DNA from: Nymphon striatum
Taxonomy: Eukaryota
Length of the DNA: 64,000 nt
Assembly: GCA_016618385.1 (NCBI GenBank)
Contig: JABFOP010000159.1
Location: 502,555-566,554, forward strand
Direction of reading: 5' to 3'
In this document: in pieces, positions 1 through 53,460 of the stretch
Layout of the letters: every line of letters begins with the position of its first letter
Position numbering within the stretch: position 1 is the stretch's first letter
Position numbers and translations under genes: made by a program
The notes under the pieces: generated by a model
The model's database searches: none
Told to the model about the DNA's origin: nothing
The model's input: the letters and a program-made list of their open reading frames with translations, nothing else

Positions 1-427
1 ATTAGGTTCCTTGTGCCTTAAAACATATGTTTAGACACTTTATTTGTAATTTTAGCTTATCTGGTTGCAAAGTTATGACAAAATTGGAACTTGCGGCTAT
101 TTTGGACGCTATCTTGATTTTTGGAGAGAGCTCCAGGGGGATTTATGGGGACTTTTAGTATGTTACTCTACACATATTCCTGGACCTATCCTGAAAAATT
201 CAGCTTGTTATGAGCGATGTCCAGGTTTAGCCTTATTTCGTCTAATGCTCTTGGCCTATTTTGTGACTGCTGCCATTGATTTTATGGTCTGTTTTAGCTT
301 AAAATGAAATTCCTCAGGCCAAAGCTTTTCATATTTCTGTAGTTTTTCTTCACCTTGTTCTACTGCATTTTGGACATTTACTAATGGGTGGTCCATAACC
401 CTTCTTGAGTAAATATCAATAAGCCCT

Positions 428-805
428 TTAACTGGATACTACATCAAATATATCAACAGATGTTGAAATTACATCACGAATCTTGAGCCTGTCAGCCGCA
501 TCTGCCTTCATACGTGTAAGTTGCTCTTCCTTGTGATAGATGACAGCATTCTGCACATCCTCATCTTCCATTGCTTCAAGATCAGCCTTCATTTGTCCAA
601 TAACACTTTGGGAATAGGTCCATACTGCCAGAGTAGATTCATCAAGCGTTGAACCAATAATACTAGAAGGTCCATGACTATGTCGCATATATGTCGTTTC
701 AATAAAGAGATCAGACCAAATAGCATTCCACAAGCTATTTCTATGTCGCATAACGTGATTCCCGCTCATAAATTGCTTTAGAACTGTGGGATCGAGTTGC
801 TGCAT
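428..805 (-). CDS. coding fragment of the same minus-strand gene or TE ORF (part 2; HxxRH and downstream Tyr motifs)
   Basis: This is a 125-aa open frame: ..FMSGNHVMRHRNSLWNAIWSDLFIETTYMRHSHGPSSIIGSTLDE... HVMRH matches the HxxRH box II of tyrosine recombinases. TTYMRH resembles the catalytic-Tyr context T..Y.H. The exon-like ORF is 240 bp from the previous one on the same strand. Confidence 0.35.
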   Translation of the reverse strand: MQQLDPTVLKQFMSGNHVMRHRNSLWNAIWSDLFIETTYMRHSHGPSSIIGSTLDESTLAVWTYSQSVIGQMKADLEAMEDEDVQNAVIYHKEEQLTRMKADAADRLKIRDVISTSVDIFDVVSS

Positions 806-1044
806 TGTCTAAAGATAATAAAGACCGTAACATGCATAATTAAAATGGTTAGCGCAAAGAAATATGGCAGCACCTTTCTCACAGATAATACGTGAAGTGG
901 CCAGTCAGCTTCTCTTTCAGCACGAATGAATTGCGTTATAATAAACATGGGTTTTATTGAACAGTCAATCCATAATTTTGTCGTTTGGCTTTTCTTACTC
1001 TTGGCCTCTAACAGTGCTTATAAAGCCGACATGCTTTGAATCTT

Positions 1045-1338
1045 CTAGTTTTCTTCACTAATACTCAGCAATGGATGTAGCAATTCCTCGGTAATAATAC
1101 GTAGTGCTCTAACATTCTGGTGAAACTTTTTGCCAGGAAGAAGTTTAGGAACACCAGCAAATGTAGATTTAAGAATGTCTTCGAGACCAGTGCCTGCCAT
1201 AAAATTTCCAACAGCTCCAACAAAACTCATAAGCATATGCATGCCTCCTAATCTAGCTAGGAATACATTTTTTAAACACATAATCTTTGTAGACCTTACT
1301 AGTGTACGTTTACTTTGACCACAAATCAAGCATTCCAT
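1045..1338 (-). CDS. coding fragment of unidentified minus-strand gene or TE ORF (part 1; possible tyrosine-recombinase box I)
   Basis: This is a 97-aa open frame: ..SFVGAVGNFMAGTGLEDILKSTFAGVPKLLPGKKFHQNVRALRIITEELLHPLL. The segment ALRIITEELL resembles the TGlRisEl box I of tyrosine recombinases. I did not recognise an orthologue. Confidence 0.35.
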   Translation of the reverse strand: MECLICGQSKRTLVRSTKIMCLKNVFLARLGGMHMLMSFVGAVGNFMAGTGLEDILKSTFAGVPKLLPGKKFHQNVRALRIITEELLHPLLSISEEN

Positions 1339-2273
1339 TATTTATCTGCAAGACAGTCAAAAAAAATTACCACAAACAAAATTAAACAGGATTTTCTTAA
1401 AAACGAACTCAACTAATTCCTCAATTTTGGACGCCATTTTGAATGTTTGCGTTTCTGCAAAAATGCTCAAGGTTTAGAGACTGGCATCCATCAGATTTGG
1501 AATCAGCGCCGAAAAATTGTATAGAAACAAGAAAAAAAGTTTATAAGGTTGTCAAAATTTATCATATACTCCCACTCGGACTATACTTGTAAAAGTAAAA
1601 CAGTTTCATTTGACAACATATATGAACAGTTGTCTTAAAAAATCTGGATAACTTTAAAAATTAAAATAATTTAAACCAGATTTGAAATAAAATAATGACA
1701 TTTGTCAAGGTATATTAGATTACATAACTGTGATGAAATCTTGCATGAGGGACCACTGACCTATCATGGCTATGTGAGGGACATCAATTTATTTTAGAAC
1801 ATACGCCCGAAGAAAAGTCAAAGTTTTGTGAAAATGTATAATTTGACATGATTGAATATATATAAATATATCATTGTTTTGAAGGGCTGTATTTATCGCT
1901 ATCAACAGGTAAATTGACCTAAATTTATGTTCTTATTCATAAGGTCGAATTTAGTTTAAAAATTGATTTAGCATGATTAGTTAGTTTACTTCAAAAAATG
2001 GTTTTGTTGTTGTTCGACAGAGCATAATTTTGGAAGATTTGTGCAGTTTTGTGTGAACTTAAAATTAAGCTCGGAGTGCTGTTTCACAGCTGATCATTCA
2101 TCCACTTTATTTTCAAGAGACGTGAACAATCAATTTATTTAACATTTACTGGAGACTACAGGTTGTTATGTAAAATAGTTTGAATACATATTGAATTATG
2201 ACTTTTATAAAGTTTTGTTTTGTTTGTTGTAGCGACTGTTACATATCAGCTCAAATTGAGCTTAATACCGCAC

Positions 2274-4360: not shown

Positions 4361-5390
4361 AGTATGTTTATTTATGCACTCAATACTTAATTATACTAAA
4401 TCTTTTTGCATGAATTACTGCATCAATGCGGCTTGGCATGGAGGCGATCAGCCTGTGGCACTGCTGAGGTGTTATGGAAGCCCAGGTTCATTTGATAGCG
4501 GCCTTAAGCTCGTTTTTATTGTCGGGTCTGGTGCCTTTCATCTTCCTCTTGACAATACCCAGGACAGGCGAGTTGGCTGGCCAATCAAACACAGTAATAC
4601 CATAGTCAGCAAACCAGTTACTAGTAGTTTTAGCACTGTGGGCAGATGCCAAGTTCTGCTGGAAAAGGAAATATGTATCTCCTATAAAGTTTGTCAGCAG
4701 ATGGAAGCATGAAGTGCTCTAAAATCTACTGGTAGATGGCTGTGTTGAGTTTGGACTTGATAAAATACAGTGGACCAACATCAGTAGCACACTGGAGCAA
4801 CTTGGATTTTTTGTGCTTCTCCACTATTCCTCTGAACTCTGGGACCCTGATTTCCAAATGAAATGCAACATTTACTTTCATCTAAAAAGAGGACTTTAGG
4901 ACCACTGGATAACAGTCCAGTTCTTTTTTTTCCTTAGCCCAGGTAAGACGTTTCTGACATTGTCTCTGCTTCAGGAGTGGCATGACACTAAGAATGCGAC
5001 TCGTGTGTATTATTTCCTGGACACGTCTGTGCATGGTGGCTCTTGAATGATGCACTCAGTCCACTCTTTGTGAAACTCACCTAAGTTCTTGAATCAGCTT
5101 TTCTTGACAATATTCTCAAAGCTGCAGTCATCCCTGTTGTTTGTGGACATTTTCCTACCACACTTTTCCCTTCCAGTCAACCTCCCATAAATGTGCTTTG
5201 ATACAGGACTCTCTACGACAGCCAGCCATTTCAGCAATGATCTTCTGCAGTTTACACTCCTTGTGGAGGGTGTCTTTGAGTGTCTTCTGGACAACTGTCA
5301 AGTCAGCAGTCTTCCCGATGATTGTGGTTGTGCGTACAGAACCACATTGAGGGATTCATAGTATTAATACTGCATAAATAGTGATTTACT
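4361..5390 (-). mobile_element. Tc1/mariner-like DNA transposon remnant (internally deleted, frameshifted transposase)
   Basis: Minus-strand reading frames encode Tc1-type transposase segments. The plus-strand ORFs 4374-4712 and 5141-5350 are their antisense. The terminal inverted repeats are AGTATGTTTATTTATGCACTCAATACT at 4361 and AGTATTAATACTGCATAAATAGTGATT at about 5390. Confidence 0.5.
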
Positions 5391-5991
5391 CAAGCTTGAA
5401 ATTAAACATTCTAATATTTTGAAATGTGTTTTTTTTTAATCTACAGGCCGTAATTATCAAAATAAAAATAAAAAACTATTAGAAACATTTTAGTTTACAT
5501 GTAACAAGTCTGGAATATATACAATTTTCACTTTGTAAAATAACAGAAACAAAATATGGAACATTTTCACAATATTCTAATTTTTTGAGATGAACCTGTA
5601 TGAACCTGTATGAACCTGAGATTGTTACTAAAGCACCATTTTTTTTTTACTAACTTCACAATAAATTTTGGGCTTAATATTTAGCTTATTAAGTTAAAAT
5701 GTTATAAACACCAATAGACTAAGACACACATTTCATGATATGTTATTAGCCTTGAAACTTAAAGCATAAATTAGTTCTTGTAGAAGATAAAGTAGGCCGG
5801 CTTCTCTATTAAGATTTTTTTGCTGAAATGGTAGTAATGGTAGGTGTATTAATATACCATAATTTATTTGTCACACTTTCTTTATTATAATTATATTGAG
5901 ACTTGTATTTTATAAATATATTTGAATTTATAATGTCTTTGTAATTTCAGATTGCTTCTCTTGATTTGTTGCGGACTCAATTAACAGCAAA

Positions 5992-6141
5992 ATGAAGCTT
6001 TTGCCTAATTCAGTGAAAAATTCAGTTTTCAGCAAACAAACCTTCTTCTTAGACCTAACAAATGATGACAAATGCAACTTGAATGCTATCAAAGAAAAGA
6101 TTTTAAACAATGGTGGCTTTGTTACCACTAATCCATCAATA
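5992..6141 (+). CDS. PARP4: PARP4-like exon 1 (start codon; BRCT domain N-terminal half)
   Basis: The ORF from ATG 5992 encodes MKLLPNSVKNSVFSKQTFFLDLTNDDKCNLNAIKEKILNNGGFVTTNPSI. This resembles the human PARP4 BRCT N-terminus (..KKLQTDIKENGGKFSFSLNPQCTHII). The donor GTAATA lies at 6142 and the exon ends in phase 0. Confidence 0.6.
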
Positions 6142-6789
6142 GTAATAATTTGTGTTTTCTTTAAAATTGATTTATCTATTATATTAATTTATTAATGTAT
6201 TTAGACTTCATGAAGAAATGATTATTCTATTTATTAAGACCCCACGCCGCAAAAAAGTGTGCCAAATTTCAGCTGAGCTGGAAAAGTTGCAATAGTTTTT
6301 AATGTGTTTTGCTTTTTGCGACAAATTTACTACTTGAATATTACAGATGTGAAGTCGGAATTGAAATTGCTTCAGTAGATACAAAGTTATGGCTATTTTA
6401 GGTGTGGACCTTCAACTGCCTTTAAGTTGAAAATCTCTAGGAGAGCGCATTTCAACATCAAACAGCGATTCAGCATGATGTAGTTCCGAGGTTTTCAGGT
6501 TTCATTGTACCTACTAGGTACCATCTAATCAATCTTGTTCTTGTATCGTATTTTCTTAATTTCACTAAGTCTACTATTAATATATCAATTGGTGAATGTG
6601 TTGATCCTAAAATGATTAATTATTGAATTATAAGTTTGATTAATTTGACAAAGTTAAAGTTAACCTAAACAAAAGTTTTAATTTATTTCCAATTTGCTCT
6701 CTCTGCTATTACAAGGAAATTGTCAAATTTATTGTGTTGATTATGTTATATTCTGCAAAAAATGTCTATCCATTTCTTTTTTTCCTCAG

Positions 6790-6967
6790 TGCACTGCAAT
6801 CCTAAAGAGTAAGTCTAAAGGTGCAAAAAGATCTTCTTCTCATCCTGTTCTTTATCTTGACTATCTTGATGCTTGTTTACTGGAAAAGCGATGTGTGGAC
6901 TCTAATTTATTTGCATTTCCGGAAACTGAAGAAGAAGAACAATTCAGCAATGGTGTGATATCTACAG
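6790..6967 (+). CDS. PARP4: PARP4-like exon 2 (BRCT C-terminal half)
   Basis: A polypyrimidine tract and CAG acceptor lie at 6787-6789. The exon encodes CTAILKSKSKGAKRSSSHPVLYLDYLDACLLEKRCVDSNLFAFPETEEEEQFSNGVIST, which aligns to the human CTHIILDNADV..KSIREKRLLD region. The donor GTATGA is at 6968 and the exon ends in phase 1. Confidence 0.6.
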
Positions 6968-7147
6968 GTATGAATATTCAAATTGGTCATTCTATTACGT
7001 AACCATTACATTTTGTATGAGGCTTTTCATTTGTCTTTAGTTTTGAATAACATGTTAACAAAGCAATTTGAGTCAAATGGAGCAAAATGATGATGAGGAG
7101 CAGCACATGTTGTTGCCTAACATAAACAATGACAAAAAACAAACTAG

Positions 7148-7303
7148 TTATATCTTCTGTTTTCGAGATGCTGCAGCTGCTCAACAAATCCCAATTTCAA
7201 ATATCACAGGATTTCTGGAAGCCAGATAAATTGTTTGGTGCCCTTGTAGTGGATGATACAGCCAAATTCATTGGATCATTCAATGGAAAATCCCTAATCT
7301 CTG
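7148..7303 (+). CDS. PARP4: PARP4-like exon 3 (candidate; phase-1 symmetric, possibly cassette)
   Basis: The exon encodes VISSVFEMLQLLNKSQFQISQDFWKPDKLFGALVVDDTAKFIGSFNGKSLIS. This aligns to the human EFGMQNVEIPHLPQDFEVAKYNTLEKVGMEGGQEAVVVEL. The acceptor is AG at 7146-7147 and the donor GT at 7304. The exon is in phase 1 on both sides, so the gene still reads through if it is skipped. Confidence 0.4.
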
Positions 7304-8276
7304 GTAGAGAAGAATGTAAATTGAGAAGGGAATCTTTTTGCTGAATTGTGGGCTTTGTGGAGGCAATAAAAACGAATTCCATGGCATTCAACTGTACACA
7401 GGGTTCTCATTAGGAACCGGCCGCCAGCTTAAAAGGCTGCTTCAAAACGAACTCAGGCCGGTTCAAATCGACAAAAAAAAAAAAAATTATATCAAAGAAA
7501 TTTGTAAACATCCGGCCGGAAACCTAAATTTTACCCCTATCATGGTGAAAATAGCACAGAATGCACGATTTCACACCTAGAAATCAAAAATTTTCTGGGG
7601 AGCATGGCACTGGACCCCCCTAGCATGCTTTACATCTACGGTGCTCGCATGTTTGGGTCGAGCTTCAAATTATTTGAAAGCCTCTTACAAAATTTCTTAT
7701 TGAGAACCCTATGTATATGCTTACTACTCCACTCTATCAGAGTAGATATAGTGCTCAGTAGTATGAGGGTGGCTGCTAATCTGTGCTTCTGATAATACTG
7801 CTTGAATGGCATGAAGTTAGTACCTGCAAGTACCATTAGTTCATATTCGGAAAAGCAATCAGTAAATGAAAGGCTCTTTTGCCACAGTGAAAATTCTACA
7901 TAATCTTAAGTAGAAACCGTTCATAATTCAGAAATTAATCAAATTCCTCATTAAAAATTGCTATACACTCCTCTAGCACATACTAAAAGTATTGGCTTGT
8001 AGTTCTAACAGAGAAGCACTGCATTCAGTCGAATGAAAACGGCCTCCAGCTTGCCATAAACCCATGTGAGTTTAGTGCAATAAGGTTTAAAAAAAAAAAA
8101 TGGTAGTACTTGTTTCTGTTTGCTCCATCTAAAATTACTATCCACATGAATGGCTCATTATGAAATTGGAGTTGGTTTGTTAGAACCATTTAATGTTTAA
8201 AGAATAAGTCAGGAATTTTGAAATTTTTTATATTTGTCAACTTTTTTTTTTCTTCTTGATAATGTTTCGAATTTAG

Positions 8277-8395
8277 AATTTGTTAAACCAAGCGAAGAAA
8301 ATGAAGATGAAACAAATCTGGACTCTATTCATACTCAACCCTATATGGAAGCGTGTATTAAAAACTACGAATTATTAAAATCATTTGTTTTTAAG
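8277..8395 (+). CDS. PARP4: PARP4-like exon 4
   Basis: The acceptor is TTTAG at 8272-8276 (phase 1) and the donor GTAGGT at 8396 (phase 0). The exon encodes EFVKPSEENEDETNLDSIHTQPYMEACIKNYELLKSFVFK. It is acidic, has a clean ORF, and its splice phases are consistent with its neighbours. Confidence 0.5.
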
Positions 8396-10640
8396 GTAGG
8401 TAAAGTATATTATGCTTTACGTTTTTTTTTTTCAATATTGTTTCATTTATTTTGATCTATATTTTTCATCCTATTGATTATACAGTCAGAAAATATATAA
8501 TGTGATAAGCCCTTAGCATTAGAAGTAGTTCAAATTCTTAAATTTTATGAATTATGTATAGTCAGGGTTTGCAAAATACCAAAATACCAAGATACTTTGC
8601 CCTTTAGGTAATACAGTCAAAAAATCTACCTGCTTGATAGCCATTTATACTTGCCAAAATCCAAATTATCAAATTAAAATAACAGTTTCAAGGCCTGAGA
8701 ATTTCAGTTACATCAGGCTTGAGAATTTTAATTTTCACTTTCTCAAACTTTATTCAAGTGTTCCGGGCAATCAAATGGGTGATTTTAAAATCCCTGATTG
8801 TTTGTAAATTCAAACTTGCTAATTTTTCAGTCTAAAAAAAAATATTCTAGAAATGGAATACTGGAATTTCTGTTGACATAATTAAATTTTACAAATGATA
8901 TGAAATAATCTGCTGTGGTTCCATATGAATAAATTTATATTAATGTATCTAATTTTTAGGGTTTCTTATAATAAAACCTTTCCACAATCTCATCTTCAAC
9001 CCACTCTTTATGCTGTTTAGGTGGTGAGTACGGAAATCTTTCCAGTATGAGATTTGACCTCATTGCCATTACTGAAAACCAACAAAACCTTACAACTAAC
9101 ATTCTAATTAATTTGAGCTGACTATTTCTCTATGCATGGCTGAGAGACTGTATGCTGACAGCCCAGAAGCTATTATCTCCTCCACTTGCCTGTAGATATT
9201 TTTCATAATTCTCGTGTGACAAAAAATGTCAGAAGATAGATGATCAAAATGGATATGTAATTGAAAATTGGAAGTCCATATCATTATTCAAAATTTGTAA
9301 GATTTATGTATGTTTTGATTCATTATTCTAGTAAATATAGTAGTTATAATACTATAGACATTTGATGTCTACTCCCATAAGGGCTTTCTACCCTTGAATA
9401 GACCCATCAATTGTTTGATCAGTGTGAATCACCTTACCTAAGTTTCTAGGGAAAGTAGTGAAAAGTATATGATAATCCACCTAGTTGTGTACTTGAAGTT
9501 TTGATAATAGGATTTTTTCCAATTTTTTTTATAAACAAACTAGGCTGATCTACGTTTGCTTCATGCACAGTCAGGTTATTGTATAAGTCATTGCAGAAAG
9601 TTATTTACTAGGCAATAATTCTGTTACTAAGTAGATTAATAGCCGCCAATTATATTAGACAACATAGGGGAAAAGGTAGAAAAGCAATTTTAAAGTAATG
9701 TATTACAAGGTTATAATAAATTGATTAAATAAATTAATAGAAAAATATATTTACAGTTAATTGAAGTTAACAAATCTTCTTTAGTATTTCCTTTCAGGTA
9801 GTAATAAAAAAAGATGTTCCTCCTGCGAGGTAAACTTTTCTTAATTTCAAAATAGAGTAATCCAAAAGGGAGTGACTGGTATGGAATGAACATAGCTGGG
9901 GATTTTTTTATAGCAGTGTTGAATGAATTAAGCCGACAGGGCAAATTTCCCCCTCCCTCTCCTCTCTCTAGTGTGGGGTGAAAAACTACGCACGAACAGA
10001 CAGACAATATTATTTTAGTATATAAGATGCTCATCTGTTCCTAGCCTTCAATTAGTAAGCTTACTTGAAGTTTACAGGTAGCAACTCTATAACCTGTGTA
10101 ACCACTAAAAGATTAATGCTAGTTTTCCAATTAACCTGAGATAAATAGACAATGCCAGCCCCATCATTAGCATTGACAGGCTTTCAGTAGTATGTCATCA
10201 CATTGCCAATAGATCTATAGTGATGCCTCCTAGAAAATTCTAGAGTATTGAGGCAAAACCTGTTTCTACCCCCAAGTGACACCACAGTGTTTCATAGTGC
10301 CACCTAACTAACTGTATTTAAACCCTAGTCATCAATCTGTTCATTATCTTGTTGAACAAGATTCATACTTATAAATTAACATTTAGTCTGTTATTTCAAC
10401 TCTATTGTGACGCAGAACCTTCTGAACAACCAAACTTCCATTAGCTAACAGTACTAAAAGTAATACTTTATACTTTTTGACTGAAGCTACAGATCTGCCC
10501 ATGTATTATGATTGTCACTTTTTTCCTCGAAATTGTGCAGTGTAAGAACCATACCATGATATTTTATAATCTTTTATTTTTTATCGAACTTAATAATTTC
10601 ATGACAGTTAAATTTTAATATTATTTTTAAAATTGATCAG

Positions 10641-10742
10641 GATGCTGACCGGATTTGCGTTGTTGAGTTGCATGCTGAAATTTTTGAAAAGTTTTCTGCT
10701 AAACGATTTGCTATAATCCAGCACATGGATTATCTTTCAGAG
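10641..10742 (+). CDS. PARP4: PARP4-like exon 5
   Basis: The acceptor is GATCAG and the donor GTTTGT, with phase 0 on both sides. The exon encodes DADRICVVELHAEIFEKFSAKRFAIIQHMDYLSE. This resembles the human EAVVVELQCSRDS..RRQFAIKK. Confidence 0.55.
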
Positions 10743-11670
10743 GTTTGTTTTAGATTACTTTAATATCGTATTTTTGTCTTTATTAGTCCTTTCTTTTGTA
10801 CTGATATCCAGAGATGCCAACTGCTACGTAATTTTCGTTGTGACTACGGATTTATGCCTCAAAATATGGAACTGTGATTTTACCTTGAAAACTACGGATT
10901 TCCGCACATTTATCCTATTTTGTATGAAGCAAATTGCATTTTCCACCAATTTCCTAAATCTTATCTATCTGTATTTCCAAGTTATGGCTACCTCCATTTG
11001 TAAAATAACCTCAGGTTTGTCGAGTATTCGATTTTGCACTCTGATTGGTTAATATTATTATGGAACGGTGCAGAACTATTGACAAATAGAAAAAACCTTG
11101 ACTTTTCTTGTGTAGTGCAAGTGTCATTTCATATATAGTAAGCAACAAGACTCAAATGTAGAATGGTGTCTTCAAAGTAAAAAGAAGAAAGTTGTTTCAA
11201 ACCAAAAGTTTCTAGCTGAATATGCAGTTGAATTTCCTTGACACATTTTAACTGCAGTGAGTAAAGAGAGTACTTTTAAAGTTAGAAAATGGCGTTAGCG
11301 CAGGATTTTGATTTTTATAAAATGCTGTTTGCGCTCTATTTTGGGCAGCGAAATTAGTCGTTCACGTGATCATGGTTTGAGATCATGGTGAGTAGACAAG
11401 TATGTATTTTATTGAAGTATTGAATGTGACAATTAGAATAATAATATAAGTGTTAATATGATTCCTAAAACATACACTTTGTCATGAATAACATTTAATA
11501 TTAGGTGAAATTTAGTATGTGAAACACTACGCTTTACTAGTAGAAAACTATGCCTAGCGGGTAGCGCTGTCAGCATGTTGGCATCTCTGGATATCTGTTG
11601 GCATCAAAATCTAGTCATTATTTCAAATTTTATTATTTAATTTCCTAATTCTCTTCCTTGTATTTAGCAG

Positions 11671-18166: not shown

Positions 18167-18257
18167 GTAAGTCTAGGAGAATAATAACTTGAAAAAAGTT
18201 CAAATCAATAGTTATTTTGATAGATTAATGTTTAATCAAAGTATGTATATTTTCCAG

Positions 18258-18476
18258 GTTACAATATATCAAGAGTATAAGAATTATAGTAATGAAGCGA
18301 TAGAGGCAAAATATGTGTTTCCTCTGGACGAGTCTGCCGCTGTTTGTGGCTTTGAAGCATTTATCAATGAAAAACATGTCATTGGAGAAGTTAAAGAGAA
18401 AGAAACTGCTCATAAAGAATACAAGAAAGCTATTAGTGAAGGGCATGGTGCATATTTAATGGATGAAGAAAAACCA
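18258..18476 (+). CDS. PARP4: PARP4-like exon 12 (VIT domain)
   Basis: The exon encodes VTIYQEYKNYSNEAIEAKYVFPLDESAAVCGFEAFINEKHVIGEVKEKETAHKEYKKAISEGHGAYLMDEEKP. This is near-colinear with the human VIVFQTYTNKSHVPIEAKYIFPLDDKAAVCGFEAFINGKHIVGEIKEKEEAQQEYLEAVTQGHGAYLMSQDAP. The acceptor is TCCAG at 18253-18257 and the donor GTAAGT at 18477. Confidence 0.85.
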
Positions 18477-18603
18477 GTAAGTAACTATTTTACTGTAGAT
18501 TTTTTAACGCAAGTGGACTTCAAGTATATAACAAGATCAAAGCTTGAGTGGCTTACTGGTATAAGACCTTCTGTCTGGGCTGGAATGTCCCAGGTTTGAA
18601 TTT

Positions 18604-20720: not shown

Positions 20721-22905
20721 TACTCATATCCTGCTATATTTAAACGGTGTTTATTATTTGTTTTTAAATTTTATTCATGTTAACCCACATTTTTCACAAT
20801 TTTTTATAAAATATTCATTCAAGTCCATTTATACAAACAATTCTTAATAATTTTAATTATTTGCATCAATTATATAATAAATTGAAGACGTAGTTATTTG
20901 AATTCCAAGTTGATTCACGTGAACTGAAGATTAAGAAAAACACATTAAAATGATAATTACGTCGTATTTGTAAATGGACGCAGGAAAGCAATGTGACCAA
21001 AACATTTTCAGGACGGCAAGTTATTATGTACCAAAAAAAATCTCGTTGGTGAGTGGCGTAGTTTAAGAAATCTTAAACCTTGCAGATGTTTTCTTACACA
21101 TTTATATATGTATTAGATGTTGCAACAGCTCAGCTGCATAGCTGTTTTGGCTACTGATTTTTGGTTTCATTTTATTCATTTGTTAACTAGTAGTTACATT
21201 TACTAGTAACATTTTACTTGTAACATTTGCTGCCCATTCACTATTCATTATTTCTTTTCGTATTATCATGCTTTCCTCTCTGAATCAGATGTAGGCTAGT
21301 TCGGATGAGAAAATACTCCGGCTCTTAGGAAACCGCCGTGCCACTGCAGGTAGAGAGCTCGTTTGTGAAGTATTGGTTTAGCGGCCGCTACTCTGAACTA
21401 TAGTTTGATCCCCATAAGTGTCAGTGGTGGATGTTAGGAAGGGCGTCTAGTCATAAATGGTTTCCTCGCCACGAGAAAAAGTTTTAATAAGGACATGGCC
21501 GATCCCTCAAGGGACTAAGGTGAAGAAGAGTCTTGTATGAAAAATTAATAGTATTTTTTGTATATTTTTCTTTTAAGATTTGAATATCATCATTAAAGAA
21601 GGCCGGGTAGCCGAGTAGATAAAACATCTTTCCATTTATGTGTCTGATTGATTCAGGTTCAAATCTCACTCCAACCTCTCATTTGCTATTCTTTCTTTAC
21701 TGCTGTGTATTATCGTGCCTTCCTCTCTGAATCAGATGCAGGCTGGTTTAGATGATGAGAAATACTCTGTCCCTAGAAAAGTACGTTAATAGAGGTCCTG
21801 TGTAAAGGAGAGCCATAACCTATACACGTTAAAAAACCCACTTCACTATTTGAAGAAGAGTAAGTTAGAATGTCCCTGTGATGTGGAGCACCTGCATAAC
21901 TCATTAGAAGTCGTATGAGTCTCGGCAGAACTCGACAGAACTCGGCAGAACTCAGGACTTATTTGAACTCCATTAACATTTGATAATGGGTTATGAGCTA
22001 TCGGTCATCAAACACAAATTTGATGCAACTTGTAATGAGCTATACCTGCTGTGCCACGGCTTCAATATCTTCAATATGAACCAAGTACCATAAAGAATTC
22101 AATTGAGGAAACTATCTTGTGCTGATAAGAAAGACAAATGAGTGAAAAAGGTTTTGAAATCAATGGTAGTGTGAATTAAGTCCTTGACTTAATTCACACT
22201 ACCTAGAGACTAGGTGGAAAGCTCGAAGGCTTGCTGCAGGGTGAGCAGCAAGCTAGAGATCAGTCCATGTTTGTAGTGGAGGTTCTGAAAAAATGTGTAT
22301 TTCCATAAGTTGCTGGTCGATTTGGATTACGTCTGTGCACAACTTGATAGTAATATAAATTGTTCTGAAAAAATGGTCCAGGATAGTTAAACTGGATTAA
22401 ATTTGTGAATACTGGATTGGAGACAGTCGTGAATAGGTAAATTTGTCCCAATCTCTGGATTCTGGATTCTGGACTTGATTACTGGTAACAAATTAACTGG
22501 AGACAAATCTTAGCCCGTAGGATTTTTGTTCCATTAAGTTAAAAGAAGTTATATTGTTGAATAAAAACTCAGGAGCTCCAAGCACATGAAGATCTTGAAG
22601 CGAAACTTGTGGAGCTCCGAGTATATAAAAGTCTTGAAGTGAACTTATCTTTTTGATGAGAAAACCGTACTTTTATTCGTTTGAAGTACAGCTGCGAGGT
22701 TCATAGACCCCTCCTCATATGCTAATCACTTGACACGGCACCTCTCGCACCGCACTGGGAGAGAGTGTGAACATTTGTTTACGACAAAATAAAACATTAT
22801 AATTAGGAACAAAGTCCATCGCTAGGAGGTTATAGTCATTTTACTACCAATTGTCTGATAAACAATCCTGTGTTGATTTGTTTTTATACTGATTTTGTAT
22901 GGCTA

Positions 22906-25089
22906 TAGTCCGGGAGCCAACTGCCATTTTTCCCCTTAACCTTGCATTGTTGTATTAAGTTTTTTTTACTGTTGATTTTGGTAGCCTAGGGTCTCTATTT
23001 TCAGAAACTGCTTGATGACATGTTGTCACCTTTGAGCAATTTGAGAAATTCAAGATGGCGTCCAAGATGATATAAATGACCATAACTCCCTACCTGTTCA
23101 TCATAGGAAGGTGATTTTTGTCTCTATACCTAGGTTTTAGGGGTCAAGCTATCCATTAGAACTAAGTATTATGTTAATATCGTATTACATAATGGTAATT
23201 TCCAAGATGAGTCTGTGAAAGACTATATAGCGAACTTCAACTATGCCATAGGAAAAAGGTTACGGGTCGAGTACGTGTATCTGATATTTGACAGATATTA
23301 TGATTACAGCACGAAAAGTGTTACCAGAGGATCTAGGGCAACTGGTGTCAGTAGGGCTCATCATTTGCAAGTCAACAGTAAACTTCCAGCGCAGAAGATT
23401 CTACTAACCTCTTCCAAAAACAAGAAGCAACTGATGCAACTGATAGTTGATGATTTTGTCCAGGATAAGAAGTTTCACGAGGACAACACACAACATTACA
23501 AGTTAGTGGTAACAGGAGCAGATCCGGTGCCAATCGAAATCAGTGAAGGTGGAGTTGTCATCTCACGGGCAGATCTGTCAACTTCACACGAAGAAGCAGA
23601 TAACGTCATTGTCCAACAGGTGTTGAGTTGTGCCGCGGAAAATGCAGAAAGCAAAATCACTGTTGTTGCCGATGACACTGACGTCTTTGTACTGTTGTTG
23701 TATTATCATCACATGGCAAATCTCAAGAATGTTGTATTGATGGAGTCCCCATCAAAGGAAGGGCGGTGCTTGATATAGGCAAAACTGTGCAGAAGCATTG
23801 TCAGATAGTCGAAGGAATACTCCCGGCACATACACTTTCTGACTGTGACACCGTCGCCTCCTATTTTAAAATTGGAAAGGCTACTGTACTCAAAACACTT
23901 CGATCGGGGCACTCACTTAACTTGTTGGGTGCACCAGGGCATTCTATGGAATCTGTTATTCAACAGGCTACCTCCTTCATTTCCGCGTGCTATGGACAAA
24001 CAGACTGTAGTACAATGTCAGAGACAAGGTTAAAGGTATGGCTGTCACAAACAGGCAAAGGGTCATCAACACTGAAGTTGTGTACCTTGCCACCAACAAC
24101 TGAGGTATTCAAAGAGAAGAGCTCACTATCAGGCTTTGGTATGGCGGTCACTGAAAGCGCAGAATCCACCCGAGTTGGACTCAACGGAATATGGTTGGGT
24201 AAAGGATGACCAAAACAAGTCCCTTCAACCAGTCACCCTACCTGATGAAGTCGAACTAGCCCCACAGATGGTACTACGTCTAATAAAATGTGGATGCCAC
24301 AGTACTACTCCATGCAGTTCACGTGCTTGTAGTTGCAACTCTGCAAACATGAAATACACAATATTTTGCGCCTGCTATAATCAGGGTTGCTGTAACCTGA
24401 CATCATAGCTGATTGCATGTCTTTGTGATGCACATGAGCAACACAACGTACAACAGTGTAGATTATTTGGTAAAGTGGTAGCCATCCTTAATTATGACTT
24501 GTATAATATGCTTTTGGTAGTCTGTGAGAATTCAGATTTACAATTAAAGAACATTTGTTATAATATAACACCTGTGGTCGTTTACCTTTTCATATTTTCC
24601 ACCAAGATTGAATAGTATAGAAGATATACCAGTGCTTGTAAACTGGCAGCCATCTTGGATTTGTAGATGACATCATCAGTATATGAACTTTGATCTGATA
24701 CAGATAGATGTGTCTCCAAAATACTCAGGGATAGACACCTTCACGACTAATTTGGAGTAAATAGTATATATGCCAGTTTTAGTGTTACGGCGGCCATCTT
24801 GGAAATTACTATTATATAATACGATATAAACATAGTACTTAGTTCTAATGGATAGCTTGACCCCTAAAACCTAGGTATAGAGACAAAAATCACCTTCCTA
24901 TGATGAACAGGTAGGGAGTTATGGTCATTTATATCATCTTGGACGCCATCTTGAATTTCTCAAATTGCTCAAAGGTGACAACATGTCATCAAGCAGTTTC
25001 TGAAAATAGAGACTCTTGGCTACCAAAATTAACAGTAAAAAAAAAATTAATACAACAATGCAGGGTCAACCATCTCTGCCCCCGGACTA
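22906..25089 (+). mobile_element. TIR DNA element (about 2.2 kb, about 230-bp terminal inverted repeats) carrying a PIN-like and CXC ORF
   Basis: 22906-23170 is the reverse complement of 24836-25089 at about 95% identity. The flanks are GGCTA|TAGTCCGGG...CCCGGACTA|CTAAG, suggesting a target-site duplication of CTA or TA. Internal ORFs at 23215-24408 are in three frames. Confidence 0.65.
23215..24408 (+). CDS. TE-borne ORF: PIN/FEN-like nuclease-type acidic motifs plus C-terminal Cys-rich CXC-like module (frameshifted or spliced)
   Basis: The ORF spans three frame segments (23215-23778, 23766-24209, 24136-24408). Motifs include SHEEADNVIVQQV, VVADDTDVFVLLLYY, SDCDTVASYFKIGKATVLK and CGCHSTTPCSSRACSCNSANMKYTIFCACYNQGCC. 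The PIN-like reading comes from the motifs only, and I could not assign a family. Confidence 0.45.
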
Positions 25090-25296
25090 CTAAGTAAACC
25101 GCTTTATTTGTTTTGATAAAAAGTTTCATACATCAATCCGTGTGATGAGTACTATAGCTATGTAATTTAGTTTTAAAAATTGTTTCACAGCTAGTTAAGT
25201 TATCATAATTTAAGAGATTAAATTTGGATAAATTTTATGCAACAATCCTTCGCCTGTAATTATTTTTTCTTTATCTTATGTTCTTTAAAATTGCAG

Positions 25297-33697: not shown

Positions 33698-34330
33698 ACA
33701 AGCCAGAGATTGTGAGCATCATCATCATCATCATCAGCCCATATTGGCCCACTGCTGAGCAAAGGCCTCCTGTCTAGATCTCCAGTCCTCTCTATCGGCA
33801 GCTCTTTCAACTCAATCCCTGTCAAACTTGTGTATTGAGATAAGCTGTCCTAAATAAATATATCTATCAACTTGGTCCAAGGCCACATTTCCTGTCATAA
33901 TGGGTTGGATTTCCACGTTTCTGTTAAACATGACCTTAGTCTTACTCAAATTAATCTCTAAACCTACTTTATTACTGGCAGTTCTCAGTTCCTCAACCAT
34001 AAGTTGAAGCTCCTGAGGGGACTTTGAGAACAGGACTACATCGTCGGCGAACCTGAGGTTGATCAGTCTATCGCCATTTATGGGGATTCCTTTCGAAGTC
34101 CAGTTTAGGCATCTAATTACATTCTCCAAGCAAGCTGTAAATAGTTTTGGAGATATGGAATCTCCTTGTCTCATTCCTTTCTCTAATCTAATCTTATTTA
34201 TATTGGTATGAAGCTTTATATTAGAAGTTCCAAGTCCAAAAATTTGGTCCAGCATTCTTATGTATAACTCCAGTGTTAGATGCTAATCAACCAAGAGAGC
34301 AGGCAGGATTTAGAAGCGGGTTTTCAACCA
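33698..34330 (-). mobile_element. RTE-like LINE fragment (reverse-transcriptase motifs, 3' UTR and (CATCAT)n tail)
   Basis: The minus-strand ORF 33812-34255 encodes ..GMRQGDSISPKLFTACLE...INLRFADDVVLFSKS..ELQLMVEEL (RT motifs including FADD). (CATCAT)n and GCCCACTGCTGAGCAAAGGCCTCC lie at 33712-33780. The element sits in the intron between exons 21 and 22. Confidence 0.65.
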
Positions 34331-43099: not shown

Positions 43100-43560
43100 T
43101 AAAACAAACTAGGTTTAACTCTTTCTTTTTCTTCTCGCCATATTCTCGCCAAGAGTGAATGGAAAGACTTGAAACTGTATGTGGCAAGGAATCGACATTT
43201 CCAAGGGACCCATCCACTTGCAGTATGGCAGAGGCAGGAGGATGCTGGGAGAGACGATTATGGAAACATTCTTAAGATTGTCCATCTTACAAGCATATAC
43301 CCCCTTAGTAATGCTGCCTGTGAGAGAGGCTTTTCTGTAATGAAAAGAGTGAAAAATGACTGGAGATGTTCACTAAACAATGAAGTTCTTGACCAGTTGT
43401 TGAGAATAAGCTTGACAGGCCCACAACTCGATGCATTCGACCCCACACCAGCAGTCAGAAGATGGTGGGTTAGTGGACAAAGAACCAAAAGACCAACAAC
43501 ATTGCCATATGGACCAAGGCATTAAGTATTATATGATATTAAGATAATCATGAGAAGGTT
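43100..43560 (+). mobile_element. hAT transposase C-terminal (hATC dimerisation) fragment, ZMYM1/Charlie-like
   Basis: ORF 43169-43525 encodes ..LSNAACERGFSVMKRVKNDWRCSLNNEVLDQLLRISLTGPQLDAFDPTPAVRRWW.. This matches the canonical hATC motif. No N-terminal transposase or TIRs were found, so it is a fragment. Confidence 0.6.
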
Positions 43561-51429: not shown

Positions 51430-52138
51430 TGTTCCAAGATTTCACAGAAACTATACAGCATTTCTTGATGAAAATGAGCAAACTGCAGATGAAGCTGGCC
51501 CTTCTGAATTTGCGCCACCAGTAGCAAATTTAGGCTTTGGAAGAGCATTTTCTGGGCAACAAAATACGTCTTCCCCACTTGCACCAGGATGTATCTCTGG
51601 AAGTAGACATCTTCAGCAAAGGATAGGATTTCGCTTTGGAGGTGAAGGTGACCCTTCTGAAGTTGCGCCACCGGCAACAAATTTGAGTTATGGAAATGCA
51701 TCTTTACCATCTGCATCAGGATTTAGCTTTGGAAGTGTTCCGAGTAATTTTGGTGCACCTGCTACAGGATTCAGCTTTGGAAGCGGACCTCCTCAACAAC
51801 AAGTTAATCTTGCTCAACCTGCATCAGGATTTAGTTTTGGAAGTGGACCTCCTCAACAACAAGTTAGTCTTGCTCAACCTGCATCAGGATTCAGCTTTGG
51901 AAGTGGACCTCCTCAGCAACAATTTAATCTTGCCCAATCTGCATCGGGATTTAGTTGTGGAGGAGAACCTCGCAACAAAGATTTATCCAAACAATCTGCT
52001 GCTGCTGGTCATCTGTTTGGTTCAAATCAAGCTTTCTCTGCAACTTCTAGTTTATTTCGAGGTCCCATGATTGGTTCTAATTCAGTTAGTGCTCCAAGAT
52101 TTCAAAATGAAAGTAGAGCATCTACTTCTTGCCGAAAA
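51430..52138 (+). CDS. PARP4: PARP4-like large repeat exon, part A (FG-like 20-aa repeats; this frame ends at TGA 52139-52141)
   Basis: The phase-2 acceptor is TTGTAG at 51424-51429. The exon encodes SVPRFHRNYTAFLDENEQTADEAGPSEFAPP...PASGFSFGSGPPQQQVNLAQPASGFSFGSGPPQQQVSLAQPASGFSFGSGPPQQQFNLAQ... It has 60-bp internal repeats. It corresponds to the low-complexity human FGSAAPP..QFSQGPVPG region. This frame reaches a stop inside the second copy of a 662-bp tandem duplication. Confidence 0.5.
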
Positions 52139-52141
52139 TGA

Positions 52142-52638
52142 GCAAACTGCAGATGAAGGTGGCCCTTCTGAAGTTGCGCCACCGGCAACAAATTTGGATT
52201 ATGGAAGTGCATTTCCTGGGCAACAAAATAAGTCTTCCCCACCTGCATCAGGATTTAGCTTTGGAAGTGTTCCGAGTAATTTTGGTGCACCTGCTACAGG
52301 ATTCAGCTTTGGAAGCGGACCTCCTCAACAACAACTTAATCTTGCTCAACCTGCATCAGGATTTAGTTTTTTTTTTCAAGATCCAATGATTGGTTCTAAT
52401 TCAGTTACTTTTGAGGATTTTCTTCCACCAGCACCACAATCAACAGAAAATCATCAGTTGCCACCAGGTTCACAAAGATCTTTATTCTTTTCAAAACATC
52501 ATCAGATAGAAGGAAGTGCTTCAATACAGCACAGGAAGGCTTTCTTTTCTGTTACCAGCTTTCTCTCAGATATTTTGAAATATATTAGTCAAAGATATGT
52601 GCAGGATGAATCAGTGAAGAAACTCTTTGTGACACACG
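52142..52638 (+). CDS. PARP4: PARP4-like large repeat exon, part B (second duplication copy, +1 frame relative to part A)
   Basis: The frame-0 reading encodes ENEQTADEGGPSEVAPPATNLDYGSAFPGQQNKSSPPASGFSFGSVPSNFGAPATGFSFGSGPPQQQLNLAQPASGFSFF..MIGSNSVTFEDFLPPAPQSTENHQLPPG...ISQRYVQDESVKKLFVTHG. The donor GTAAAT is at 52639. Joining part B to part A requires a frameshift, or an intron that I did not find. Confidence 0.45.
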
Positions 52639-52716
52639 GTAAATTTTTTCATTATTCATTATTTTTTCATTTACTGAATCTTTCACATATAGAAATATTT
52701 TTTCTTGTTTTATCAG

Positions 52717-52826
52717 GAATAAAGATCCCTGTCATGCAGACTAACATGAAATCTGCTGTTAACAATGATACTATTCATTGGAAAAGTGATAAAATAAAAG
52801 AATTCCTGGAAAATTTGTTGGAGAAT
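52717..52826 (+). CDS. PARP4: PARP4-like exon (C-terminal region)
   Basis: The phase-1 acceptor is TTATCAG at 52710-52716. The exon encodes GIKIPVMQTNMKSAVNNDTIHWKSDKIKEFLENLLEN. The donor is GTAAGT at 52827. Confidence 0.55.
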
Positions 52827-53460
52827 GTAAGTAATTTGATTTTATAGAAGTCATCTTTTCTGATTTTGGCTTTTTAAGTATACATAAGTATAAGTATAGT
52901 TTTTATATATTTTTTTTTTTTATGTATACATTTTGTATCAATTTTATATATATTCATTTTTTATGCATTTCTTGTTATTTTTATGGAACTAATTTAGAAT
53001 ATTTAATTACAATATACTCGTATTAAAAGACTTGAAAGCACAAAAAATCTCTTTCTAATGTTCTGATTCTATTTGGTTTCTTTCTAATTCTACTTTTCCT
53101 TTCATATTTTAATCTGATGATGGTAATAATTCGAGTTGTCGAAATATTATCCATAAACTTTATTTTAAAACATATTTTGTGTGTGATTTATATGATTTGG
53201 TCAGCTATGATCAGTTTTATAAAAGCATTAGATTTTCACAGGAAAAAAAGCAATTTTTCTAAAAGAATTTTGGGTGGGAGGGGGTAACTAATCCCCCCCC
53301 CAAGCCCTATGAAAGAAAAGAAAACCCCAGCTGATTTAATATTCTAGCTAACAATATGTGTGTTTCTCTTGAGTTTTTGTGTTATTTTGTTCCTTCTGCA
53401 TTAACATGGCTATATCTCAACAATTTAAATTTTGTTATTAAGGGTTATACTTTCTGTCAA

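Follow-up and report, generated by a model that had tools for sequence, protein, structure and literature searches.

A 2.2-kb element in the Nymphon striatum genome as a probable decayed AcademX transposon with the remains of a FEN-like nuclease

Results

The 2.2-kb element at positions 22906 to 25089 of the window (the whole 64,000-nucleotide stretch of Nymphon striatum DNA analyzed here) is, with a probability that we put at approximately 93%, a copy of an AcademX transposon (Academ superfamily) that is non-autonomous, has an internal deletion and has decayed by mutation. The first-pass annotation of this DNA had placed the element at exactly these coordinates and had recognized a DNA transposon with terminal inverted repeats (TIRs) and a target site duplication (TSD), and both observations hold, with the two TIR arms aligned to each other and CTA present on both sides. 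It had also considered that the element might be non-autonomous, which we can confirm, and that it could not be placed in any named superfamily, which we must correct, since the same domain architecture is already on record for Academ/AcademX.

Academ is among the least-studied superfamilies of eukaryotic DNA transposons and reportedly goes back to Kapitonov & Jurka in Repbase. AcademX elements are characterized by a single large protein, in which a DDE transposase is joined by a nuclease of the XPG type and by a putative Cys8 zinc finger, and by a 3-bp TSD in animals (Kojima 2020, Mob DNA 11:15, PMC7165386). In Academ transposases the first and the second D are unusually far apart (138-192 aa), and the second is followed by a G/A/E/QxxH motif (PMC7165386). 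The suggestion that the element might belong to an under-described family of TE-associated nucleases was therefore right in that the lineage is little studied, but the family is not new, as AcademX had been described in the same paper.

Termini and target site duplication

The transposon extends from 22906 (TAGTCCGGG) to 25089 (CCCGGACTA), and the coordinates of its features are collected in Table 1. The TIRs had been taken for perfect-looking repeats of 230 bp. In fact the arms are approximately 300 bp long and imperfect, as seen in a global alignment over approximately 305 nt, where 280 matches stand against 16 mismatches and 24 gap columns. A repeat search returned an inverted-repeat core of 250 nt with 97% complementarity and, farther out, another piece of 32 nt, and the outer 35 nt of the arms are poorly matched apart from the 12-nt tip. 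The left arm includes a conserved 30-nt block, TTGAGAAATTCAAGATGGCGTCCAAGATG, which is identical in the window element, in the related copy L001 and in both arms of the related element L002 (see below).

The duplicated target is 3 bp long and reads CTA on both sides. Of the two readings CTA and TA the former holds, and three related complete copies also have duplications of 3 bp, namely TCT/TCT in L002, CTG/CTG in L003 and TTC/TTC in L004. A perfect 3-bp TSD is thus found in four out of four complete copies, each time with a different sequence, and the probability of this happening by chance is approximately (1/64)^4.

The 3' non-coding subterminal region of the window element has a mirrored counterpart at the left end of the longer copies L003 and L004. 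Subterminal motifs containing AAGATGGC occur four times in the window element, in an orientation that is inverted between the ends, and the 10-mer of the subterminal motif is enriched in comparison with shuffled sequences.

When the window was searched with a 20-nt terminus and a 25-nt piece of the TIR core, for which 0 chance matches are expected, no second occurrence was found, and a search of the window for additional copies of the 22906-25089 element was equally negative. The start of the window holds a fragment of a different Academ element. A VIT-domain exon is located at 18189-18599, LINE and hAT fragments are present elsewhere in the window, and the genome context is of the animal type.

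Table 1 Features of the decayed AcademX-like element and its flanks (positions in the window).
Feature	Position	Strand	Details
Left TSD copy CTA	22903-22905	.	...tatggCTA, then TAGTCCGGG; matching 3 bp beyond the right end
Left TIR arm	22906-23212	+	5' tip TAGTCCGGGAGCC; terminates at the internal-deletion junction
Conserved 30-nt block	23041-23069	+	TTGAGAAATTCAAGATGGCGTCCAAGATG, inside the left TIR arm
Internal-deletion junction	23209-23215	+	Subterminal repeat ...TTTCCAAGATG abuts mid-nuclease AGTCTGTGAAAGACTAT...
Nuclease remnant, segment 1 (frame 0)	23215-23747	+	LIFDRY (D at 23290-23292), HEEAD (23587-23601), DDTD (23671-23682)
Frameshift	23747	+	1 nt deleted compared with L001
Nuclease remnant, segment 2 (frame 2)	23748-24119	+	LSDCDT (23838-23852), KIGK (23868-23879), then helical domain
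Second frameshift cluster	24119-24133	+	Changes of -1, +6 and -1 nt compared with L001
C-terminal segment (frame 0)	24134-24408	+	Cys8 module 24289-24393; stop codon 24406-24408
3' non-coding subterminal region	24409-24794	+	Degenerate repeats of ~150 bp, each with GCCATCTTGG (24644-24662, 24788-24806)
Right TIR arm	24795-25089	-	3' end ...CCCCCGGACTA
Right TSD copy CTA	25090-25092	.	Directly after the right element end

The coding remnant

The pieces of the window ORF and the peptides quoted previously were located in frames 0, 2 and 0. The first-pass annotation had attributed the split over three frames to either frameshifts or short introns, of which only the frameshifts stand, as indels relative to L001. 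Introns were rejected as the cause of the frame changes, because the differences from the 92%-identical L001 are indels of 1 and 6 nt and the protein alignment is continuous. The position of the first frameshift, 23747, is read through in the L001 ORF (P0002) and in every family protein.

In the comparison with L001 the internal-deletion junction falls at 23209-23213, where a stretch of 1,278 bp that is present in L001 (L001 9351-10629) is missing from the window, and the extra sequence at the same point amounts to 1.4-1.7 kb in L003 and L004 and to approximately 3.7 kb in L002. Segment 1 of the nuclease begins at the equivalent of residue 1045 of the intact relative P0241 and does not include the first catalytic motif (I/V-D-G-S-A; xDGSA). 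In segment 2 the window has LSDCDT against the family consensus LSGCDT, which corresponds to the last catalytic Asp, so that the G of SGCD has become a D, and it has KIGK against the consensus GIGK of the helix-two-turn-helix motif. The C-terminal segment has kept seven Cys residues of the Cys8 module, the sixth conserved Cys being a Tyr in the window (TAC, 24355-24357), and it reads MKYTIFC against MKCTIFC in the close copy P0001. The ORF has no start codon and is N-terminally truncated. The window copy is incapable of encoding a functional product and is an inert fossil.

No match to the published Academ transposase domains was found inside 22906-25089. The earlier statement that the element does not encode a DDE transposase is thus correct for this copy, but it does not hold for the family, which encodes a DDE transposase that has been deleted here (compare L002 and P0241 below). 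Since the absence of the transposase fits a non-autonomous deletion derivative, it is no argument against an Academ descent.

Relatives and nested deletions

The conceptual window protein of 398 aa was used as query against 5.8 billion proteins in a word-indexed search, in which 267 homologues passed E<=1e-3, the best of them at 5e-180. The longest ORFs in this set are 600-695 aa, from sources that include crab and fish genomes, and the window ORF corresponds to only the approximately 400 C-terminal amino acids of these homologues. An exhaustive HMMER search with the relative P0014 brought the number to 10,543 cluster representatives at the same E value limit, among them intact proteins of 1,300-1,600 aa. 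On P0241 (1,467 aa), which was the best of these, the window protein covers residues 1045-1442 and is 43% identical (E 3e-109).

At the DNA level, L002 is an element of approximately 5.5 kb (5261-10764) with termini TAGTCCGGCAGCC...GCCGGACTA and TIRs of approximately 325 bp that can be aligned with the window TIRs. Its composite ORF is approximately 1,400 aa long, with the window protein as its last third. L001, L003 and L004, at 91-93% DNA identity to the window element, share its TIRs, and L003 and L004 are complete at 3.97 kb and 3.62 kb, respectively. For L001 no right end turned up over a distance of 10 kb, and a tandem repeat interrupts this copy. Together with the window element these three copies show nested 5' deletions, in which L001 has kept the transposase from the second-D region on, L003 and L004 from after GGxH, and the window element none of it. 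All four are without an intact DDE domain and have different deletion end-points. An autonomous full-length copy of the exact subfamily (>85% identity) was not seen, and L002, the sole 5.5-kb element, has approximately 60% protein identity and is frameshifted itself.

Placement in the Academ superfamily

Five transposase-domain sequences from Data S3 of PMC7165386 were used as queries and matched L002 (E 5e-20), L003 (E 2e-18) and L001 (E ~1e-11). On P0241 the same Academ domains aligned end to end with residues 419-801, with E values from 7e-29 to 3e-25. The distance in P0241 from D422 (ADNFD) to D594 (TLDLQLY) is 172 residues, which is within the published range of 138-192, and the second D is followed by GGMH at 620-623 and an E at 799 (FIETT). 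The nuclease is found directly downstream of the transposase in the same protein, and the order is the same in L002.

The Acropora AcademX families in Fig. S2 of PMC7165386 have termini TAGTCCGGGAGC...CCAGACTA and 3-bp TSDs; the termini of Academ-4_ADi are TAGTCCGGGAGCAAAATG...CTCCAGACTA, and Academ-5..9_ADi begin with TAGTC(C/T/A)(G/A)G (PMC7165386). The window termini (TAGTCCGGGAGC) agree with those of the coral families Academ-4..9_ADi, and the window tip TAGTCCGGGAGCC is identical to the Academ-4_ADi terminus over the first 12 nt, an agreement that is supportive and not a formal criterion.

With AcademX elements such as Academ-4_ADi to Academ-9_ADi of Acropora digitifera, Academ-2_HM and Academ-1_CGi, the window element has in common the 3-bp TSD and termini of the type 5'-TAGTC(C/T)(G/A)G... 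Its full-length relatives share with them the protein order (DDE, XPG/FEN-like nuclease, Cys8) as well as the transposase motifs GxxH and the RAERE..W..HL..NYARY..IE(T/Q) block. Unlike the listed elements, the window element is a frameshifted 2.2-kb derivative without the transposase and the first nuclease motif. A further difference lies in the long TIRs and subterminal repeats, which measure approximately 300 bp in the window and at least 540 bp in fuller copies. Since architecture, TSD and terminal sequence have already been described for AcademX, the window copy is at most a new, decayed member of the family. The family name is a sequence-based assignment, made against the domains and termini printed in the supplement of one paper (machine-read text).

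The nuclease domain

The first-pass annotation had pointed to acidic motifs resembling those of PIN or FEN 5'-nucleases, and this likeness is borne out both by invariant acidic columns and by a fold search with Foldseek. In an alignment of 50 family members (A1), D38, D80, E174/E175, D177, D197/D198, D200 and D256 are invariant or at least 90% conserved. The set of approximately seven metal-binding carboxylates of the FEN superfamily is found in the family, and the window copy has all but the first, which is deleted. When the family profile was searched against PDB, only human EXO1 was matched, and weakly so (E ~0.1); in the profile alignment D80 (FD) corresponds to EXO1 D78 and SGCD..GIG to EXO1 220-246, with D256 at EXO1 D225. 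An AlphaFold2 model of the family member P0053 had a pLDDT of 90.9 and a pTM of 0.89, and a Foldseek search of PDB with this model returned XRN1, EXO1, Rat1/XRN2, FEN1, Rad2, T5 D15, GEN1 and XPG, with E values from 5e-6. Both the PIN-like alpha/beta core and the helix-two/three-turn-helix fold were present in the fold search.

HMM searches for PIN, XPG and CXC had been proposed as the means of checking the nuclease assignment. The Pfam thresholds were not reached, and it was Foldseek that found the nuclease fold. Pfam gave no PIN, XPG or CXC for the conceptual window protein and six long homologues, and XPG_N and XPG_I had no match at E<=10 either to the window protein or to the 50 family members. 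Weak matches to 5_3_exonuc_N and NYN were seen in three of the 50 members each, and a phmmer search of PDB with the single window sequence gave nothing relevant. Sequence-level HMMs are too insensitive for the Academ nuclease domain. Since neither of the Pfam models XPG_N and XPG_I is matched, the term “XPG” is valid at the level of fold or superfamily only. According to the model, the “XPG” domain of Academ is a full FEN-superfamily fold, closest to EXO1 and with a conserved active site. The Rad2/XPG/FEN1/EXO1 5'-nucleases have 9-17% sequence identity to the Academ nuclease, and unlike these enzymes the Academ domain forms part of a transposase polyprotein, with an additional helical domain and the Cys8 module behind it. 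The window copy is truncated and inactive.

The Cys8 module

The CXC (tesmin-like) module of the first-pass annotation is present as a Cys-rich, CXC-like module, but a tesmin-CXC assignment stays below the Pfam threshold. Eight Cys residues are invariant or nearly so in the 50-member alignment (C408, 410, 416, 421, 423, 430, 434 and 436 in P0053 numbering). Their spacing, C-x-C-x5-C-x4-C-x-C-x6-C-x3-C-x-C, is similar to that of the Tesmin/TSO1 CXC domain (CRC; TCR, PF03638), and some Academ family members are labelled Tesmin/TSO1-like CXC in UniRef. TCR was the commonest weak Pfam match, with sub-threshold matches in 19 of the 50 members and a best score of 14.7 bits (E 0.037) against a gathering threshold of 23.5, and it did not match the window copy in Pfam. 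Tesmin and LIN54 moreover carry paired CXC modules, in contrast to the single module of the Academ family. The tesmin CXC likeness is a resemblance and not a demonstrated membership, and the only term for the module in the Academ literature is “putative Cys8 zinc finger” (PMC7165386).

Discussion

The autonomous form of the element would be approximately 5.5 kb long, with TIRs of approximately 300-500 bp, subterminal repeats and one protein of approximately 1,400-1,500 aa, in which an N-terminal Cys-rich region would be followed by the DDE transposase, the FEN/XPG/EXO1-type 5'-nuclease and the C-terminal Cys8 module. Insertion would have occurred by DDE-catalysed cut-and-paste with a 3-bp staggered cut in the target. 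A deletion that starts within the left subterminal repeat and reaches halfway into the nuclease has cost the copy its entire transposase together with the first nuclease motif. It probably arose by abortive gap repair after excision, which is the usual origin of internally deleted derivatives of DDE cut-and-paste transposons, and later indels and substitutions broke the residual ORF. After the deletion the element could have moved only in trans via a full-length relative, whose protein would recognize the termini that are still present and the recurring subterminal motifs with AAGATGGC. The window element, L001, L003 and L004 have all lost the transposase from the 5' side and retained the nuclease-Cys8 half together with the long repeat-rich ends, which could reflect chance or a repair bias or, less probably, a cis-preference or a regulatory role of the retained half.

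The first-pass annotation had raised the possibility of a captured host gene, that is, a non-autonomous element in which a host nuclease ORF, foreign to the element machinery, was acquired by Pack-type transduplication. A fragmentary ORF, no transposase between the window TIRs and no TE-related Pfam match could be read in this way, but the ORF turns out to be the C-terminal portion of the one large protein that the transposon itself encodes. Intact relatives (P0241 and many others of 1,300-1,600 aa) fuse the nuclease-Cys8 part in frame after the Academ DDE domain, in L002 this part sits between TIRs homologous to those of the window, and L001, L003 and L004, with the same TIRs, retain progressively more of the transposase. 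The nuclease is in addition part of the published definition of AcademX (PMC7165386), and we consider host-gene capture effectively refuted. Still less credible is a novel element type whose FEN-like nuclease serves as the transposase and whose natural, complete form is the 2.2-kb unit. This unit is indeed compact, lies between TIRs and a TSD and has no ORF other than the nuclease, and the four close copies are all without an intact DDE domain. Yet this ORF has neither a start codon nor the first invariant Asp motif, carries frameshifts and meets the TIR where the deletion junction lies, the differing deletion end-points of the four copies are as expected of decay products, and the relatives with intact ORFs all bear a DDE domain.

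The 3-bp TSD and the long TIRs are also what one would expect of another superfamily with 3-bp duplications, PIF/Harbinger or CACTA/EnSpm, that carried an accessory nuclease. The termini of the window element, however, are TAGTCCGG (TAGTCC) and not CACTA, the target sites CTA, TCT, CTG and TTC do not fit the TWA of Harbinger, no Harbinger or EnSpm domain was matched in Pfam, and in the full-length relatives the transposase matches published Academ domains from end to end and shows the Academ-specific long D-D spacing, all of which makes such an origin very improbable. The family occurs widely among animal genomes, and some of its members carry the ordinary name “Tesmin/TSO1-like CXC domain-containing protein”, which would suit a domesticated (exapted) host nuclease gene of Academ origin. 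We regard this as next to negligible for the window, where the locus retains TIRs and TSD, is frameshifted at two points, lacks a start codon and is missing catalytic and Zn-binding residues, and where related copies are found at unrelated loci with different TSDs.

With the element taken as a decayed AcademX copy, the role of the nuclease in the intact protein may be considered. The FEN-like domain may process the strand that is not cut by the DDE transposase, or flaps at the donor or target, in analogy with TnsA/TnsB of Tn7, where a DDE enzyme is combined with a second, unrelated nuclease able to cut the other strand. Since the full set of conserved carboxylates is kept throughout the 50 members aligned, out of a family with thousands of representatives, it is possible, although on balance doubtful, that the FEN/EXO1-like domain is a catalytically required second nuclease and that AcademX is a eukaryotic cut-and-paste transposon with a built-in structure-specific 5'-nuclease. 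Tn7 serves as a working analogy only; TnsA has a restriction-endonuclease fold, is a separate protein and shows no homology to the Academ nuclease. Kojima has speculated that the Academ nuclease is coupled to DNA repair (PMC7165386), and we found no literature on the Academ nuclease later than Kojima 2020.

Database entries in which family members are named nuclease or “tesmin-like CXC” do exist, one of them within a bacterial MAG. The locus at 22906-25089 should be masked as an AcademX non-autonomous DNA transposon, and a gene label as nuclease or “tesmin-like CXC” would be inappropriate. For the family as such, the predicted FEN fold and the conserved 30-nt TIR block provide concrete handles for studying the cooperation between a DDE transposase and a 5'-nuclease.

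An Academ fragment at the start of the window

At window 1-1583, on the minus strand, lies a second Academ fragment, independent of the 22906-25089 element. In sequence comparison it was matched by the published Academ transposase domains (Kojima 2020, PMC7165386) with an E value of 2e-17. The fragment carries frameshifts and an internal deletion and is truncated by the window start. Its recognizable parts are collected in the table together with the other features of the window.

Features located in the window and, for the TIR block, in two further loci
Feature	Position	Strand	Remarks
Academ fragment terminus TAGTCCGAG	1583	-	flank GTA
TIR-like block ACATTCAAAATGGCGTCCAAAATTG in the same fragment	~1450-1425	-	
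Transposase domain, C-terminal part, same fragment	~1260 to 440	-	LGGMH ... RAEREADW ... FIETT
ORF, same fragment	428-805	-	
Host exon, VIT_2 + VIT domain	18189-18599	+	VWA5A / PARP4-like; 80-83% identity to best database matches; points to an animal host
Perfect 18-nt palindrome, 3-nt spacer, GGTAGTGTGAATTAAGTC / GACTTAATTCACACTACC	22165-22203		~700 bp upstream of the element
30-nt block TTGAGAAATTCAAGATGGCGTCCAAGATG inside TIR	23041-23069, 24935-24963; L001 ~9180; L002 ~5390, ~10610		
Reverse-transcriptase fragment, LINE-like	33812-34255	-	FADD motif present
hAT-transposase C-terminal dimerisation-like fragment	43169-43525	+	NAACERGFS
ORFs encoding GFSFGS(G)PPQQQ repeats	51683-52847	+	FG-nucleoporin-like

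Flanks and relatives of the 2.2-kb element

A few bases beyond each end of the element, the AT-rich flanks (22873-22888 versus 25103-25118) share a 16-nt direct similarity of 88%. It is separate from the 3-bp target site duplication and, given the base composition of these flanks, has probably arisen by chance.

The closest copy, at locus L001, is broken within its Cys8 module, where a tandem array begins (L001 11741-11860 and further) whose units are approximately 30 bp long, GAATACCTCC(A/T)CGGGCCGC..., and no right end of this copy was found within 10 kb. Another family member, the 449-aa protein P0016 with 51% identity to the window protein, is encoded on a 1.9-kb contig and is labelled by NCBI as 'MAG: hypothetical protein [Pseudomonadota bacterium]'; it is almost certainly a fragment of a eukaryotic transposon that has been mis-binned into a bacterial MAG.

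A conserved block in the terminal inverted repeats

The 30-nt block TTGAGAAATTCAAGATGGCGTCCAAGATG is identical in the two subfamilies, the proteins of which are only about 60% identical, and the TIR sequence around the block falls to approximately 68-70% identity between the same two subfamilies. The subterminal regions carry shorter AAGATGGC repeats, one per approximately 150 bp. The 30-nt block is likely to be a protein-binding site.
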